Shown here in pieces: positions 19,422 to 25,277 of a stretch of DNA of 64,000 bases; position 1 is the first letter of the stretch, and each line of letters starts with the position of its first letter. The notes beneath the pieces are model-generated. The model had not been told where the DNA came from, ran no database searches, and saw only the letters and a list, made by a program, of their open reading frames with translations. The position numbers and the translations under genes were made by a program. This DNA is from an uncultured Acidimicrobiia bacterium (lineage in GTDB: Bacteria > Actinomycetota > Acidimicrobiia > Acidimicrobiales > AC-14): assembly GCA_963836205.1 (NCBI GenBank), contig CAWIIV010000006.1, forward strand, positions 480,001 through 544,000, in the 5' to 3' direction.

Positions 19422-20179
19422 GCGTCGTAGCCTTCGCGCTCGAGGCGGTGGGCCAGGTCGGCGTCGCCCTGGGCCACGATGCGCCCGTCGACGAGGATGT
19501 GCACCACGTCGGGCTCGAGGTACTGCAGGATGCGCTGGTAGTGGGTGATGAGGAGCACGCCCAGCTCGGGCCGGTCCTTGCGCACCTCGGACACCCCGTT
19601 GGACACCGTCTTCAGGGCGTCGATGTCGAGCCCGGAGTCGGTTTCGTCGAGGACGGCGAACTCGGGCTCGAGGATGGCCATCTGCAGGACCTCGTTGCGC
19701 TTCTTCTCACCGCCCGAGAAGCCCTCGTTGAGATAGCGGTCGCCGAACGACGGGTCGATGCCGAGGCGGGCCATCCACTCCATGATCGACAGCCGCAGCT
19801 CGAGCACCGACAGGTCGATGCCCTTGCGGGCCGACAGGGCCTGGCGGAGGAACTGCACCACCGACACGCCCGGGATCTCCTCCGGGTACTGGAAGGCCAG
19901 GAACAGGCCGGCCTTGCCCCGCACGTCGGTGGCCCAGTCGGTGATGTCGTCGTCCTTGAACGTGACCGTGCCCGACGTGACCTCGTAGTCGGGATGGGCC
20001 AGGAGGGTGTTGGCCAGGGTGGACTTCCCCGACCCGTTCGGCCCCATGAGCGCGTGCACCTCGCCCGCCATCACGGTGAGATCGACCCCCTTGAGGATCT
20101 CCTTGCCTTCCACCGAGACGTGCAGGTCCGTAATCTCGAACAACGGCGTCTCGGTCAGAGGCTGGCCCACGTCCTCCAT
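19406..20179 (-). CDS. sufC: Fe-S assembly ATPase SufC (copy 2)
   Basis: GPNGSGKS, FSGGEKKRNE, LDETDSGLDIDAL. Confidence 0.92.
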   Translation of the reverse strand: MEDVGQPLTETPLFEITDLHVSVEGKEILKGVDLTVMAGEVHALMGPNGSGKSTLANTLLAHPDYEVTSGTVTFKDDDITDWATDVRGKAGLFLAFQYPEEIPGVSVVQFLRQALSARKGIDLSVLELRLSIMEWMARLGIDPSFGDRYLNEGFSGGEKKRNEVLQMAILEPEFAVLDETDSGLDIDALKTVSNGVSEVRKDRPELGVLLITHYQRILQYLEPDVVHILVDGRIVAQGDADLAHRLEREGYDAWRTA

Positions 20180-20217
20180 ATTACACCTACGGCCGTAGGG
20201 GAAATTGGGCCCGGGTC

Positions 20218-22386
20218 GTGGCAACGGCCGGTTTGGCTAACGTCGGAGCTATCGCCGATCCCTGGACGTTCATGGGCGCCAGCCCGTCGCTGGGACAGGC
20301 CGACGGCCACGTCACCCTGGTCGAAGGGGCCTCGTTCTGCATCTCCGACCGCAGCGGCGACATCCGGGCCGCCTCCGCCCAGGGCCTGTTCTTCCGCGAC
20401 ACCCGGTTCCTGTCCGGGCTCGAGCTCAAGATCAACGACTACCCGCCCGAGCCGCTGGCGGCGGAGACGTCCAACCCCTTCTCGGCCACGTTCGTCCTCC
20501 GCACCCAGACCCGGCCGGGGGCGGCCGAGAGCTCGCTCATGGTCTTCCGGTACCGGTACGTGGGACGGGGCATGCGGGAAGACCTGGTGCTCTCCAACTA
20601 CGGCGAGGAGGCGGCCTACTGCTCGGTCGAGCTCTCCTTCGCCGCCGACTTCGCCAACCTCTTCCGGGTCAAGGAGGGGCACCTGCGCAACGAGGGCAGC
20701 GTCGAGCTGCGCACGTCGGCGTCGGGGATGGCCTTCGACTACCGGCGGGGGCCGAGCACCAAGGGCCTGCGCATCGCGGCCAGCGAGCCGGCCCGGGCCC
20801 TGTCGTCCACGCTCCACTACGAGCTGGTCATCCCCGCCCGGGAGAGCTGGAACCTGTGCCTGCAGTTCACCCCCGTGATCGAGGGCGACGAGATCGAGCC
20901 CCGCTACCTGTGCGGCCAGCCGGTGGAGCAGGCCACGCCCAGCCAGCGCCTCGACCACTGGCGCAGCATCGTCCCCCGGGTGGAGACCGACTACGAGGAC
21001 CTGCGCAAGGTGGTGGCCCGGTCGGCCGAGGACCTGGGCGCCCTGCGCATCTTCGACCCCGACCACCCGGAGCGGACCGTGGTCGCCGCCGGCGCCCCCT
21101 GGTTCATGACCCTGTTCGGGCGCGACTCGCTGCTCACCGCGTGGATGGCGCTGCTGGTCGACCCCGACCTGGCCAAAGGAGTGCTCCAGACGCTGGCCCG
21201 GTTCCAGGGCACCCGGGTCGACCCCCGCCAGGACGAGGAGCCGGGCAAGATCCTCCACGAGATGCGCTTCGGCGAGGCGCCGTCGCTGTCGCTGGGCGGG
21301 GGCGACGTCTACTACGGGTCGGCCGACTCCACGCCCCTGTTCGTGATGCTGCTGGGCGAGCTGCGGCGGTGGGGCCTGGCGCCCGACGTGGTCGACGCCC
21401 TCCTGCCCGCCGCCGACCGGGCCCTGTCGTGGATCGAGGACTACGGCGACATGGACGGCGACGGCTACGTCGAGTACCGGCGGGCGTCCGACAAGGGCCT
21501 GGCCAACCAGGGCTGGAAGGACTCCTGGAACGCCATCCGCTTCGCCGACGGCCGCCTGGCCCGTCCCCCCATCGCCCTGTGCGAGGTGCAGGGCTACGTC
21601 TACGCCGCTTACCTGGCCCGGGCCCACTTCGCCGACGAGGCCGGCGACACCGAGCTGGCCGTCGACTACCGGGCCCGCGCCAACGACCTGAAAGTCCAGT
21701 TCAACCGCGACTTCTGGCTGCCCAAGCAGGGTTGGTACGCCCTGGGCCTCGACTGCGACAAGCGCCCCATCGACGCCCTCGCGTCCAACATGGGCCACTG
21801 CCTGTGGACCGGGATCGTCGACGAGGACCGGGCTCCGTTGGTGGCCGAGCGGCTGCTGTCGCCCGAGATGTTCAGCGGCTTCGGCATCCGCACGCTCGCC
21901 ACCACCATGTCGGGCTACAACCCGATCAGCTACCACATCGGGTCGATCTGGCCCCACGACAACGCCATCATCGCCGCCGGGCTCATGCGCTACGGGTTCG
22001 CCGACGAGGCCAACCGGGTGATCAAGGGCCTGCTCGACGCGGCCACCCACTTCGACCACGGCCTGCCCGAGCTGTTCGGGGGCCTGAGCCGCGACGACGT
22101 GCCGTTCCCCGTCAGCTACCCGTCGTCGTGCACGCCCCAGGCATGGTCGGCGGCGTCGCCGCTGCTGTTCCTCCGGACGCTCCTCCGGTTCGACCCGTGG
22201 GTCCCCCACGACAAGGTGTGGGTCGACCCCGAGCTCCCGGAGTGGATGGGCCGCCTGCGGATCGGCAACATCCCCCTGGCCGGCCAGCGCATCACCATCG
22301 ACGTCGACCGGGCGGGGACCAAGATCGAGGGCCTCCCCCCCGACATCGAAGTCGTCAGCGAGCCCCGCGACCCCCTGACCGCCTGA
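20218..22386 (+). CDS. Glycogen debranching enzyme-like amylo-alpha-1,6-glucosidase
   Basis: AGAPWFMTLFGRD, EEPGKILHE, NQGWKDS, GSIWPHDN, PQAWS; start uncertain. Confidence 0.88.
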   Translation: MATAGLANVGAIADPWTFMGASPSLGQADGHVTLVEGASFCISDRSGDIRAASAQGLFFRDTRFLSGLELKINDYPPEPLAAETSNPFSATFVLRTQTRPGAAESSLMVFRYRYVGRGMREDLVLSNYGEEAAYCSVELSFAADFANLFRVKEGHLRNEGSVELRTSASGMAFDYRRGPSTKGLRIAASEPARALSSTLHYELVIPARESWNLCLQFTPVIEGDEIEPRYLCGQPVEQATPSQRLDHWRSIVPRVETDYEDLRKVVARSAEDLGALRIFDPDHPERTVVAAGAPWFMTLFGRDSLLTAWMALLVDPDLAKGVLQTLARFQGTRVDPRQDEEPGKILHEMRFGEAPSLSLGGGDVYYGSADSTPLFVMLLGELRRWGLAPDVVDALLPAADRALSWIEDYGDMDGDGYVEYRRASDKGLANQGWKDSWNAIRFADGRLARPPIALCEVQGYVYAAYLARAHFADEAGDTELAVDYRARANDLKVQFNRDFWLPKQGWYALGLDCDKRPIDALASNMGHCLWTGIVDEDRAPLVAERLLSPEMFSGFGIRTLATTMSGYNPISYHIGSIWPHDNAIIAAGLMRYGFADEANRVIKGLLDAATHFDHGLPELFGGLSRDDVPFPVSYPSSCTPQAWSAASPLLFLRTLLRFDPWVPHDKVWVDPELPEWMGRLRIGNIPLAGQRITIDVDRAGTKIEGLPPDIEVVSEPRDPLTA

Positions 22387-22388
22387 CC

Positions 22389-22439
22389 GTTCGTGGGCCG
22401 GTTTGGGGGCGCCTGGCGCACCTTTTCCGACCCACGAAC
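22389..22439. repeat. REP-like palindrome, family A copy 2 (diverged); may act as terminator
   Basis: GTTCGTGGG..GGGGCGCC..GCGCACCTTTT..CCCACGAAC between convergent genes. Confidence 0.6.
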
Positions 22440-22442
22440 TTC

Positions 22443-23060
22443 CTACCAGCCCCGGTCGACCCACTCCTGGAGGTTGGGCCGCTCGGTACCGATGGTGGTG
22501 TCGGAGCCGTGGCCGGGCAGCACGAGGGTGTCAGGCGGGAGAGTGGCGAACAGGCGGTCGTCGATCGAGCGGATGATCGTGGCGAAGTCGGAGTAGGCCC
22601 ACCGGGTGGCGCCCGGCCCCCCGGGGAACAGGGTGTCGCCCGAGAACAGCACCGGTGACCCCTCGACCTTGAAGCACATCGAACCCGGCGTGTGGCCGGG
22701 CGTGAGGATGGTGTGCAGCCGCAGCCGGCCTACGGCGATCACGGTGTCGTCCTCCAGGAGGAAGTCGTACGACGGGAGCATGGCCGCGTCCTCGGCCGTC
22801 ACGCCTACCAGGTAACCCGCCTCCCGGACCGCGGGGACGGCCTGGATGTGGTCCCAGTGGCCGTGGGTCTCGAGGACCTGGCGGACGTCGAGTCGCCGGC
22901 ACAGCTCGAGCAGCTTGTCGTGCTCGTTGGCCGCGTCGAGCAACGCCGCCTCCCCCGTCTCCCGGCAGCGGACGACGAAGACGTTGTTGGCCAGCGGTCC
23001 CACCACCAGGCGGGTGATCTCGACCTGCGAGTCCTGGTAGTGGAGCGCGCCGGCAACCAT
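22443..23060 (-). CDS. MBL-fold metallo-hydrolase (glyoxalase II-like)
   Basis: THGHWDH, PGHTPGS, SGDTLF, PGHG. Confidence 0.9.
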   Translation of the reverse strand: MVAGALHYQDSQVEITRLVVGPLANNVFVVRCRETGEAALLDAANEHDKLLELCRRLDVRQVLETHGHWDHIQAVPAVREAGYLVGVTAEDAAMLPSYDFLLEDDTVIAVGRLRLHTILTPGHTPGSMCFKVEGSPVLFSGDTLFPGGPGATRWAYSDFATIIRSIDDRLFATLPPDTLVLPGHGSDTTIGTERPNLQEWVDRGW

Positions 23061-23147
23061 GCAGTCGAGTATGGCGCCGAGCGCGCGCCTCGGCGGTCGC
23101 CGTCTGGGTTGAGCCCCGAGTCTGTGGAAGTCTCGACAGGGGGAGGC

Positions 23148-24551
23148 ATGGACGGCGAGGCATCCGAGAACCGAACAGCAGCAGCCGCAGAAGTCGCTGT
23201 CAGCTACTCAAGCCGCGACCGCACGCAGGTAGTCGAGTTCGTCGAGCAGCTTCGCCAAGCCGGGGTCTCAGTATGGATCGACTACGGCAGCATCGACGGA
23301 GCGCTCTTGTGGCACCAGGAGATCGCCGACGCGATCGAGGCGTGCAAGGCGCTCGTGCTCTTCGCGTCGGCGGCGTCGCTGAGCTCGCCGCATGTCGTCC
23401 GGGAGGTGTCGTTGGCCTTGGACATGAACAAGCCGATCCTGCCTGTGTTTCTGGAAGCCACCGAGATCCCCCGGTCGCTTCGCTACCAACTGACTGGCAT
23501 CCAGCACATCAAATTCCACTCCGGTGACCCCAGCGAGACCTACGCGGCGGTCCTCCGCTCGCTCTCACGACTGGGCGTCGAGATCCGGAAGCCGATCGCC
23601 TCAGTCCGCGCAGCACCCGAGGAGCCCAGTTCCGTCCCGCTCCGCGTCGCCCGCCCACCAGTGCCGAACGTGGTGAGGCCCCGAGCCCCCGCCGGGGCCG
23701 CCCAGCGGGTTCATCGCCGGTCGCCGGGCGTCGGACATGAGGTCCGTGCAGGGGCAAGGGCCAATATCGAGGCGGCCGGGAGGTCGTCCCGAGGGCCATG
23801 GAAGATCGCGGCCGCTTCGATTCTCCTCGTTGTGGCGGTCGTGATCGGATTCTTGCAGCTGGCCCCCGAGCGGGGCAGCGATGGATCGACACTCAGCGAC
23901 CACCCAAGCACTACGGCGAGCACCGCCGCCGCCGGGTCCGGTACGCCTGTTAGCCTGCCGACCCCAGTCACGGGTGCATCGATCACCGGCGAAACCCCGT
24001 GCCCGAACGTCGACGGGTCGTCGCCCCGCACGACGGCCTTCGCCAAGGCGCCCCCGACGTGCATCGACGCCGGTAGGGCCTACGCCGCCGAAATGCAGAC
24101 GTCGAAGGGCCTCATCACGATCACCCTCGATGCCGACAGCGCACCCCTGACGGTGAACAACTTCGTGGTCCTGGCCCGCTACCACTTCTTCGACACACTG
24201 CCCTTTCACCGCATTGTCAGGGGCTTCGTTGTACAGGGGGGCTCACCCGATGCGACGGGCGCTGGTGGACCCGGCTACCGGTTCGCCGACGAGCTGCCCC
24301 CGGCCGACGGCTACGAGCTGGGGGCGGTCGCCATGGCCAATTCGGGTGCCGACACCAATGGCAGCCAGTTTTTCATCGTCTCGGGCGATCCGAGTTCCTT
24401 GGCGCCCAGCTACACGCTGTTCGGCGAGGTCACCGCCGGCCTTGACGTTGTTAGGGACATCGACGCCGCCGGCCTACCTGGATCGGATTCGGATGCGGGC
24501 AAGCCTACCGAGGTCGTAACCATCCAGTCGGTGGTAATCCAAGAGAGCTGA
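23148..24551 (+). CDS. TIR domain - TM helix - cyclophilin-type peptidyl-prolyl isomerase fusion
   Basis: TIR: VSYSSRD...VWID...EIADAIEAC...SPHVVREV; TM IAAASILLVVAVVIGFL; cyclophilin FHRIVRGFVVQGG, AMANSGADTNGSQFFI; GGGAGG before ATG. Confidence 0.85.
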   Translation: MDGEASENRTAAAAEVAVSYSSRDRTQVVEFVEQLRQAGVSVWIDYGSIDGALLWHQEIADAIEACKALVLFASAASLSSPHVVREVSLALDMNKPILPVFLEATEIPRSLRYQLTGIQHIKFHSGDPSETYAAVLRSLSRLGVEIRKPIASVRAAPEEPSSVPLRVARPPVPNVVRPRAPAGAAQRVHRRSPGVGHEVRAGARANIEAAGRSSRGPWKIAAASILLVVAVVIGFLQLAPERGSDGSTLSDHPSTTASTAAAGSGTPVSLPTPVTGASITGETPCPNVDGSSPRTTAFAKAPPTCIDAGRAYAAEMQTSKGLITITLDADSAPLTVNNFVVLARYHFFDTLPFHRIVRGFVVQGGSPDATGAGGPGYRFADELPPADGYELGAVAMANSGADTNGSQFFIVSGDPSSLAPSYTLFGEVTAGLDVVRDIDAAGLPGSDSDAGKPTEVVTIQSVVIQES

Positions 24552-24587
24552 GGGGGAAGAGTCGGCACCCGCCGCTAGCCTGCCCGG

Positions 24588-25022
24588 GTGGCCGTGATCC
24601 TCGTGGCGCTGGCGATCGCAGGTGTCTTCGCCATCGCCGCCGTCGTCATCGGCCGGGAGGTCCGCCGGCTGGCCGCCCGGCCCCCGCAGCGGTCGTTCGA
24701 CTTCGAGGAGGCGGTGGCCTACGTGTGCGACCACGTCGGGCTCGAGGTGGCCTCCGTCTTGAGCCCCGACGACGTCCGCAAGATCCTCGACTGGCACCTC
24801 GAGTACTTCCGCCTCCGGGGGGTGGCGTCGAACGGCGACCGGCCTCACACCGACGGGCCGGTGGTGGTCAGCGGGGCGGAGACGGTGGACTTCGTGCTCA
24901 TGCAGTCGGAGGCGAGCGGCACCCCGTACACGCCCGCCCAGGTCCACGCCGTCCTCGACGCCCAGATGCGTTACCTGGAGGAGATCGGGGCCGTCGGCCA
25001 GGTCGCCGATCCCGACGAGTAA
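24588..25022 (+). CDS. Hypothetical protein with N-terminal TM helix
   Basis: 144 aa ORF with host-like codon usage. Confidence 0.7.
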   Translation: MAVILVALAIAGVFAIAAVVIGREVRRLAARPPQRSFDFEEAVAYVCDHVGLEVASVLSPDDVRKILDWHLEYFRLRGVASNGDRPHTDGPVVVSGAETVDFVLMQSEASGTPYTPAQVHAVLDAQMRYLEEIGAVGQVADPDE

Positions 25023-25061: not shown

Positions 25062-25277
25062 CACCGAAGAAAGGAGGTGGTCCAACTGAGCGATAGTTGT
25101 CTTGGGACCTCGGAGGTGGCTGTCCGCTAGCGGCAGCTGGGCCACGCTGGCGAATACCGCCAGTCACCGCTCGAGATCACGTCCGGAGCTGGTCCCGCCC
25201 GGAGTAGTCCGTTGATCTCGGGTTTTCCTTTCCAGCTAGAACTACAGCCGAGGGGGCGCACACCGCGCCCCCTCGGC
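25062..25277 (+). ncRNA. Putative structured RNA / small-ORF transcript of unknown family
   Basis: Several nested stems, SD AAAGGAGGTG, 14-codon ORF 25086-25130, terminal hairpin GCCGAGGGGGCGC..GCGCCCCCTCGGC. Confidence 0.5.

Follow-up and report, generated by a model that had tools for sequence, protein, structure and literature searches.

A TIR–transmembrane–cyclophilin fusion protein from an uncultured Acidimicrobiia bacterium, a candidate membrane sensor with a captured housekeeping prolyl isomerase

Introduction

Known TIR enzymes are switched on by self-association and then cleave NAD+. To our knowledge, the bacterial systems that use them sense events inside the cell, namely phage proteins, nucleic acids or second messengers. 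The described proteins that best match the TIR considered here are Cat1 (9mud), AbTir (7uwg, 8g83), the C. elegans TIR-1 and human SARM1 proteins and the TIR-APAZ protein of SPARTA. These include no membrane protein with an outer domain, and their sensors are CARF, SAM/ARM or Argonaute modules. Here we describe a gene (nt 23,148–24,551, forward strand) in a 64,000-nt stretch (the window) of contig CAWIIV010000006.1, from the genome of an uncultured Acidimicrobiia bacterium (GCA_963836205.1). It encodes a single protein that joins an N-terminal TIR domain, one transmembrane (TM) helix and a C-terminal cyclophilin-type peptidyl-prolyl isomerase. The fusion is best filed as a sensor-coupled TIR protein, and an unusual one, with a sensor that would be both extracellular and a captured housekeeping enzyme.

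Two other systems invite comparison. Animal Toll-like receptors resemble the fusion in connecting a ligand-binding domain on the outside, by way of one TM helix, to a TIR in the cytoplasm, but this is an analogy only, as the fusion carries its TIR at the N-terminus (type II), has no leucine-rich repeats, and its TIR is nearer to the enzymatic than to the scaffold type. Primate TRIMCyp (TRIM5-cyclophilin A) arose by capture of a housekeeping cyclophilin as a target-binding module for immunity, and its output requires higher-order assembly. Here the likeness is one of logic only: TRIMCyp is cytosolic, its output parts are RING, B-box and coiled-coil, the proteins are unrelated, and no capsid-like ligand is known for the fusion.

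Among bacterial systems, Thoeris ThsB and the single-gene TIR systems of E. coli are, like the fusion, TIR-based accessory genes. According to the excerpted text of PMC11350192, some of the E. coli systems are single proteins, one class of which has a TM segment, and the membrane features of Toll-like receptors seem to be absent from the bacterial TIR systems studied there. The word 'cyclophilin' does not occur in the text excerpts of 10.64898/2025.12.03.692087 (the 2025 Thoeris survey), PMC11350192 and PMC7159879. An earlier reading of the window (the preliminary description) knew of no characterisation of the architecture, and no paper on a TIR-cyclophilin fusion was found; supplementary domain-architecture tables could list such a build. 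A literature search for membrane TIR receptors gave nothing relevant, and no paper was found on the TIR-TM-TolB-like/TPR proteins, which share the TIR subfamily of the fusion.

Results

The forward-strand frame is open from nt 22,692 to 24,551 and, read from the ATG at nt 23,148, runs without a stop for 467 residues. This start agrees with a homologous protein, P0002, which opens with the identical residues M-D-G and aligns from residue 1. The product begins with a TIR_2 domain (PF13676; residues 16–130, nt 23,193–23,537), predicted to be cytoplasmic, whose score of 76.6 bits is well above the cut-off of 28 (E = 2.9e-21), the genome search giving the same span. Its putative catalytic glutamate, Glu86 (codon at nt 23,403–23,405), lies in the motif HVVREV. 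A cytoplasmic linker rich in Pro and Arg follows (residues 145–217, nt 23,580–23,798; 11 Pro and 14 Arg/Lys), and then a single TM helix (residues ~219–240, nt 23,802–23,867), at which the Kyte-Doolittle profile (19-residue window) peaks at 2.67, with no other window in the protein above 1.6. Beyond the helix is a Ser/Thr-rich tether, predicted to be extracytoplasmic (residues 241–271, nt 23,868–23,960; 21 of the 60 residues from 241 to 300 are Ser or Thr). This leads into an N-terminal extension of the cyclophilin (residues 272–314, nt 23,961–24,089) with two cysteines, C285 and C305, that are invariant in 12/12 sequences of alignment A4 and may form a disulfide. The cyclophilin core itself (PF00160; residues 315–462, nt 24,090–24,533), predicted to lie outside the membrane, reached 123 bits where 21.7 is the cut-off (E = 1.8e-35). 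All of these features are on the forward strand. The preliminary description had named this succession of TIR, Pro/Arg linker, single TM helix, Ser/Thr linker and cyclophilin in one reading frame, and every part of it is present, as is each of the motifs it listed: HVVREV, FHR (residues 353–355), QGG (363–365), AMAN (395–398) and GSQFF (405–409). In NCBIfam the sole similarities, to PpiA/PpiB and a retron TIR, were below threshold.

P0002 is a 454-aa metagenomic protein from independent sources that carries both Pfam domains and is 63% identical to the fusion over 100% of the query. It was found among 5.8 billion proteins, of which 8000 candidates were scored, 3059 had E ≤ 0.001 and 120 were listed; it is the only other full-length match among those 120 and is collinear throughout, linker and helix included. 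Identity between the two proteins is 69% without gaps in the TIR region, 29% with 15 gap columns in the cytoplasmic linker, 50% with one gap column in the TM helix, 45% with one gap column in the outer tether, and 79–81% without gaps in the cyclophilin (81% in the Cys-pair extension). The alignment thus shows a purifying pattern, in which selection conserves both domains while the linkers have diverged. Because an independent protein has the matching collinear build, the fusion is a real gene and not a chimera, and the earlier worry that it might be a singleton or an assembly product is answered by this diverged homologue.

The fusion is extremely rare, and every search returned only these two proteins. 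No other protein with both domains was recovered in a search with the TIR region (1396 candidates, 61 with E ≤ 0.001), and a TIR profile run against longer proteins recovered no further fusion (8000 candidates, of which 1413 had E ≤ 1e-10 and 120 were listed). An exhaustive search of 1.84 billion representatives gave no other fusion among the best 150 matches listed (to 161 bits); a more diverged one below about 160 bits could escape it. The fusion was not found in 60 relatives of the same family and order, a count that includes seven unpublished genomes (G008, G009, G015, G017, G021, G023 and G035), nor in another 400 genomes from the class, whose best TIR match reached 43% identity. A pattern scan of all species-representative genomes gave seven TIR loci, none with a cyclophilin; another scan of species-representative genomes gave no match, and a metagenome scan gave 588 relatives, dominated by ordinary cyclophilins, none of which covered the TIR. 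By cluster look-up the fusion and P0002 each form a one-member cluster, and the ESM Atlas returned no usable match. Two kinds of candidate were rejected: P0218, which consists of four tandem TIR domains, and cyclophilin matches of 430 and 630 aa, which are tandem cyclophilin repeats. Small shares (0.06–0.17) of the stretch are contained in three soil-metagenome runs from one study, and no RNA run was listed as containing it. The contigs built from these reads are short and low-depth, some are identical to the window (nt 23,293–23,447, 23,873–24,186 and 23,908–24,058), and none of them bridges the TIR-cyclophilin junction.

Conservation within the TIR domain is centred on a set of residues (S19, Y20, D24, D45, S80, E86, A90, P99 and L102) that are invariant in 66/66 relatives, and Glu86 is invariant in each of three alignments (25/25, 66/66 and 11/11 aligned relatives). 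Its counterparts in the alignments are the Glu of 'WCWDEL' (Cat1) and that of 'WTNYEL' (AbTir), the catalytic residue of these two enzymatic TIRs. The Trp ahead of the Glu in the Cat1 and AbTir alignments is missing in the fusion TIR, which has NV.KEV instead. Comparison with solved structures, using a TIR-only profile (alignment A5), gave Cat1 at E = 1.1e-8, AbTir at 1.1e-6 to 2.9e-6, TIR-1/SARM1 at 2e-5 to 6e-5 and TIR-APAZ at 2e-4, while the scaffold-type domains of MyD88 and TLR6 reached only about 0.04–0.07. Since Glu86 is invariant and the best profile matches are NAD-cleaving TIRs, the domain is, as judged by alignment and profile, of the enzymatic (NAD-cleaving) type.

Among the matches listed, the closest TIR relatives (53–58% identity) lie outside the organism's own class, in Verrucomicrobiota, Bacteroidota-labelled and other metagenomic bacteria. 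Most listed relatives are TIR-TolB-like/FlgO-TPR proteins, either of ~580 aa without a hydrophobic helix or of ~650–690 aa with one. When the builds of 104 newly listed TIR relatives were counted by a crude hydropathy test, 86 had an N-terminal TIR, exactly one hydrophobic helix (at about residue 160–190) and a TolB-like/TPR tail; 12 had no helix and four had several, the TIR of P0429 is not N-terminal, and P0411 is without the Glu motif by the pattern used. The TIR-TM-TolB-like/TPR proteins (Verrucomicrobiota and many phyla; L108–L110, P0331–P0400) are of the same TIR subfamily as the fusion (53–58% identity) and share with it the invariant residues (Glu86 among them), an N-terminal TIR of the 'SYS..D / KEVSLA' type, a charged linker and one hydrophobic helix. 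They differ in their outer part, which is TolB-N/FlgO-like plus TPR, whereas Pfam finds only Pro_isomerase after the helix of the fusion; furthermore, the outer cyclophilin of the fusion came with the tail and TM helix of a housekeeping protein. Other outer or C-terminal modules in the subfamily are a PD40 propeller (P0329) and NHL repeats (L107), two members (P0124 and P0410) have multi-pass membrane domains, and the organism's own class has the more distant TIR-helix-unknown-ectodomain proteins L117, L118 and L119. Across the membrane-TIR clade, judged by these domain assignments, the outer module is exchangeable and the TIR constant.

A TIR tree (169 segments, reduced to 45 by removal of any row with 85% identity or more to one already retained) placed the two fusions as sisters (SH-aLRT 92), adjoining the TIR-TM-TPR clade (SH-aLRT 86).

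Some further members of the TIR group have builds of their own. In P0121–P0123, of the same subfamily, an N-terminal hydrophobic segment is followed by an unannotated outer region of ~280 aa, a TM helix and a C-terminal TIR, which is the part order of Toll-like receptors. A verrucomicrobial locus (L110:7998–12307) carries adjacent genes of the same subfamily for a TIR-TM-TolB-like-TPR protein and for the TIR-TM-PD40 propeller protein P0329, set among isoleucine/valine-biosynthesis and tRNA-synthetase genes. Within the same class, L115 (G405 contig 148) has its TIR, 43% identical to that of the fusion, at the N-terminus; an alpha/beta-hydrolase fold comes next, and then a long stretch up to the C-terminus that matches no Pfam family.

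The genome also holds seven further TIR_2 loci above the Pfam cut-off, which belong to other subfamilies and have a low GC content at third codon positions (GC3; 0.60–0.86). They are on contigs 7, 8, 11, 12, 14 and 20 (loci L019–L026). By eye they include a TIR-WD40-like frame, a TIR-NTPase-TPR-like frame of ~1000 aa and a protein with a C-terminal TIR; the later part of the TIR-WD40-like frame is repetitive, Arg/Pro-rich and out-of-frame-looking. A broken TIR in two sub-threshold pieces (GC3 0.52) is present at the start of contig 11.

There are six Arg/Lys in the 30 residues before the helix of the fusion and one in the 30 after. Because of this positive-inside count, together with the lack of a signal sequence ahead of the folded TIR and the invariant Cys pair in the outer part, we infer a type-II single-pass protein with the TIR in the cytoplasm and the cyclophilin outside. 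The host would be a monoderm actinobacterium, so that 'outside' would mean the wall zone.

Turning to the cyclophilin half, matches were present in 59/61 genomes searched, the two without being 73% and 82% complete. The genome's own membrane-anchored cyclophilin, P0007 (281 aa, contig 2:23556–24398), is directly followed by a second cyclophilin. Such housekeeping membrane cyclophilins are about 280 aa long, have no TIR and a GC3 of 0.97, and form a conserved tandem with another cyclophilin in almost every relative searched. Residues ~184–467 of the fusion are collinear with them (63–66% identity) through basic tail, TM helix, Ser/Thr tether, Cys pair and core, and the last ~30 residues of the linker are homologous to their N-terminal cytoplasmic tail (alignment A4, in which RRSP..RSSRGPW of the fusion is matched to RKKP..STRRKW). 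Tree placement agrees: in a quick maximum-likelihood tree of 91 rows (with one out-of-frame row to be ignored, the true paralogue row being P0007), the two fusions group as sisters with an SH-aLRT of 97, inside a clade of 25 rows (SH-aLRT 100) that includes the organism's own paralogue. The terminal branches of the fusions are 0.21 and 0.22 long, compared with a median of 0.073 for housekeeping orthologues. From collinearity and phylogeny, the cyclophilin half, cytoplasmic tail included, is derived from the housekeeping membrane cyclophilin of the lineage. As the fusions are sisters in both the TIR and the cyclophilin trees, the trees indicate that the fusion arose once, when a membrane-clade TIR was added in front of a duplicated membrane cyclophilin of the lineage. 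Contig 2 retains the housekeeping copy, which would leave the cyclophilin of the fusion free for a new role.

The tandem of a ~280-aa membrane cyclophilin and a ~185-aa cyclophilin spans contig 2:23556–24952, and paired matches occur in many of the 60 relatives. Relatives of this cyclophilin were also seen fused to an Hsp70-like ATPase, a redoxin/thioredoxin-like domain, a SecDF P1 head and an FKBP (P0249, P0250, P0299 and P0293), all of which are folding or secretion modules.

Residues R355, F360, Q363, A397, N398, Q407, F409 and L418 are invariant between the fusion and 10 housekeeping orthologues. Tyr422 replaces the His of aligned solved cyclophilins, and Tyr is found in all 10 of these orthologues as well. 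Both fusions retain 114 of the 124 columns that do not vary notably among the housekeeping orthologues (the conserved columns), and the derived substitutions common to both are three (A326T, Y347F and T443L). Among solved structures the nearest is 1W74, which carries the annotation peptidyl-prolyl cis-trans isomerase A (E = 7.1e-28). The domain is a complete and probably active prolyl isomerase. Cyclosporin A is a doubtful probe for it, because Ser417 stands at the position of a Trp in the aligned PPIL1 structure, a residue that matters for cyclosporin binding.

The GC3 of the fusion gene is 0.80 and uniform across its halves (0.83 in the TIR part, 0.81 in the cyclophilin part), while values for the neighbouring genes are 0.92–0.98 and those for the genome's own two cyclophilin paralogues are 0.97. 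Among 1416 long coding-like frames of the genome (median 0.91), it ranks within the bottom 7%. The gene was found in 1/8 genomes of the genus. Comparison by blastn with same-genus genomes delimits a segment without homology (nt 23,093–24,562) that takes in the gene, 55 bases ahead of it and 11 bases behind it: homology to relatives stops at nt 23,069–23,092 in 6/6 loci and restarts at nt 24,563–24,575 in 3/6, these being the three relatives' loci that reach far enough. In those three relatives the slot is about 1.1 kb. It is occupied in one (L010) by a gene in the same orientation for a 343-aa acyl-CoA-dehydrogenase-like protein (read, and confirmed by Pfam), and a stretch similar to that gene is visible in another locus (L011). 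No homologue of the acyl-CoA-dehydrogenase-like gene was found elsewhere in the genome, an assembly of 25 contigs that is 88.6% complete, and there were no flanking repeats above chance length or signs of mobile elements at the fusion gene. On this comparison of loci, the fusion gene entered this genome later, by a clean one-gene replacement of the acyl-CoA-dehydrogenase-like gene. Given its presence in one of eight genus genomes, its low GC3 and the one-gene replacement, the gene is classed as accessory or foreign.

The purine run GGGGGAGG (nt 23,139–23,146) ends one base from the ATG and is a weak candidate for a ribosome-binding site because of that spacing. Rfam gave no match upstream of the gene, and no promoter-like site was found at it; one terminator-like site inside the gene was disregarded. 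A separate cyclophilin isoform from an internal start was ruled out, as the codon homologous to the housekeeping start is GTT, which is not a start codon.

The genes surrounding the fusion are housekeeping genes, including a SufS-type aminotransferase, an ABC ATPase, thiamine synthesis genes and pyruvate dehydrogenase E1. On the left is a divergent gene for a metallo-beta-lactamase-fold hydrolase (nt 22,443–23,060, reverse strand; Pfam) which, together with the glycosidase beyond it, is kept in all eight genus genomes and is not part of the system. That glycosidase is a 722-aa protein of the glycogen-debranching-enzyme-like or MGH1-like type (nt 20,218–22,386, forward strand); an antisense frame of 769 aa that overlaps it (nt 20,155–22,464) was rejected as a high-GC artefact. 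On the right, 36 bases past the stop codon, begins a gene (nt 24,588–25,022, forward strand) whose 144-aa product belongs to no recognised family and is hydrophobic in a segment at its N-terminus. It is probably not a dedicated partner, because it is 88–95% conserved in relatives without the fusion. Between this gene and an alpha/beta-hydrolase gene there is a match over the full model length to Ms_IGR-5, an actinobacterial small RNA (Rfam; nt 25,063–25,229, forward strand; 60.8 bits against a gathering threshold of 45, E = 2.1e-12).

Discussion

The architecture suggests, as the best though tentative reading, an outside-in sensor: a ligand engaging the outer cyclophilin would bring the TIR domains together in the cytoplasm and so start NAD+ cleavage. 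The outer cyclophilin would serve as a low-affinity, avidity-driven binding module for proline-containing polypeptides, for example unfolded exported proteins that have piled up, or a protein of an invading phage or a bacteriocin that needs a host isomerase. A multivalent ligand would gather several molecules of the fusion in the membrane, and their cytoplasmic TIRs would then self-associate and cleave NAD+. The outcome could be NAD+ depletion, with growth arrest or abortive infection, or an ADP-ribose-derived signal. A receptor-like reading of the protein, first put forward in the preliminary description, fits the clade, in that 86 of the 104 newly listed relatives combine an N-terminal TIR and one TM helix with a variable outer domain. 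An immune or conflict role is favoured by the sporadic distribution and foreign codon usage of the gene. Phage HK97 depends on the periplasmic prolyl isomerase FkpA. According to the excerpted text of PMC2615193, the toxicity of imported colicin M requires FkpA, a precedent that also favours an immune or conflict role.

A bolder version of this proposal, by analogy, is rather unlikely. The fusion would be a bacterial counterpart of TRIMCyp with the topology of a Toll-like receptor, using a copy of the cell's surface prolyl isomerase as bait. Any invader in need of a host isomerase during its passage through the envelope, be it a bacteriocin on import or a phage protein of the ejection or tape-measure kind, would cluster the bait, and the TIR NADase would fire before the invader takes over the cell.

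Several observations weigh against the sensor reading. No activity, ligand or phenotype is known for the fusion. Its neighbours are housekeeping genes and not a defence island, and PADLOC-DB v2 gave no full-length match, only eight partial ones within the N-terminal 145 residues, the best of them to SAVED-TIR (E = 5.1e-9; residues 4–94, 92/404 model positions). Similarity to Thoeris is limited to a ThsB_TIR score of 18.4 bits, below the cut-off of 21.2 (PADLOC ThsB models gave E = 1.2e-4 or weaker), and there is no ThsA-like neighbour among the flanking genes. With three shared derived substitutions in 124 conserved columns, the cyclophilin has hardly changed from the housekeeping form, so that its sequence holds no pointer to a specialised ligand. 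A promiscuous isomerase would encounter unfolded exported proteins all the time, so that its threshold for activation would have to be high. The positive-inside count shows no trend across 93 family members (35 with more positive residues before the helix, 5 equal and 53 with fewer), and the topology of the wider family therefore rests on the absent signal peptide. A receiver of a TIR-made signal was not found in the 88.6% complete genome, where RyR was the sole family searched. With only two members known, the gene could be an evolutionary dead end.

Of the preliminary interpretation as a whole, the architecture, the likely topology, the retained active-site residues of both the TIR and the cyclophilin, and a codon usage less GC-skewed than that of the neighbours all held up. 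The parts that found no support were NADase activity itself, any particular ligand containing proline, and a role in antiphage defence. On the last of these, besides the housekeeping setting and the weak, partial PADLOC TIR matches, PHROGs gave no match and no relative of the TIR profile was found in viral contigs.

Four other explanations were considered. The protein may be a foldase first, that is, an extra membrane-anchored prolyl isomerase whose TIR is a handle for oligomerisation or localisation, or a regulator of the foldase, with no outside-in signalling; we regard this as unlikely, if worth serious attention. The near-unchanged cyclophilin with all catalytic residues kept is in its favour, as are the folding and secretion modules (FKBP, redoxin, SecDF P1 head, Hsp70-like) carried by the other fusions of the cyclophilin clade. 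However, the genome already has a housekeeping membrane cyclophilin with a second cyclophilin beside it, the TIR lies across the membrane from the foldase, which makes direct help impossible, and an invariant Glu86 plus about 25 other TIR positions invariant across phyla exceed what a passive handle would need.

A non-enzymatic TIR acting as an adaptor, which on engagement of the ectodomain would recruit other TIR proteins of the cell (such as TIR-STAND or TIR-WD40) in the manner of Toll-like receptors and MyD88, is improbable. The genome does offer possible partners in its seven further TIR_2 loci, including the TIR-WD40-like and TIR-NTPase-TPR-like frames seen by eye, but these are of other subfamilies, a query with P0001 returned only its own gene and the two cyclophilins, and the TIR profile is nearer to enzymatic than to scaffold TIRs. 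We give similarly little credence to an evolutionary accident, in which a fusion of recent date and with no function of its own, neutral or slightly harmful, would be heading for loss. The long terminal branches and the discovery of two members only in any search are what such an accident might leave; against this, 63% identity between the members points to an old fusion in which both frames are nevertheless intact, and domains far better conserved than linkers, with catalytic residues kept, indicate purifying selection on both halves. Finally, an assembly chimera or a frameshift join of neighbouring genes, conceivable for an incomplete 25-contig assembly without a public contig found to bridge the junction, can be dismissed given the same collinear architecture in P0002, down to the homologous linker and tail, the uniform GC3 and the congruent sister relations given by both halves.

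If the sensor reading is right, a TIR tied to an outward-facing domain by a single helix would pass information across the membrane, like the Toll-like receptors of animals. If the TRIMCyp-like version of it were true, immune sensing would take place at the outer face of the membrane and not in the cytoplasm, and the abundant TIR-TM-TolB/TPR relatives would represent a repertoire of surface immune receptors. Cyclophilins have standard assays, known active-site mutants and known peptide-binding behaviour. With an enzyme this well understood on its outer side, the fusion is easier to study than any other member of its class. It may become a tractable model for how the far commoner TIR-TM-TolB/TPR proteins are switched on, and would provide a clean natural example of a housekeeping foldase recruited as a recognition module.

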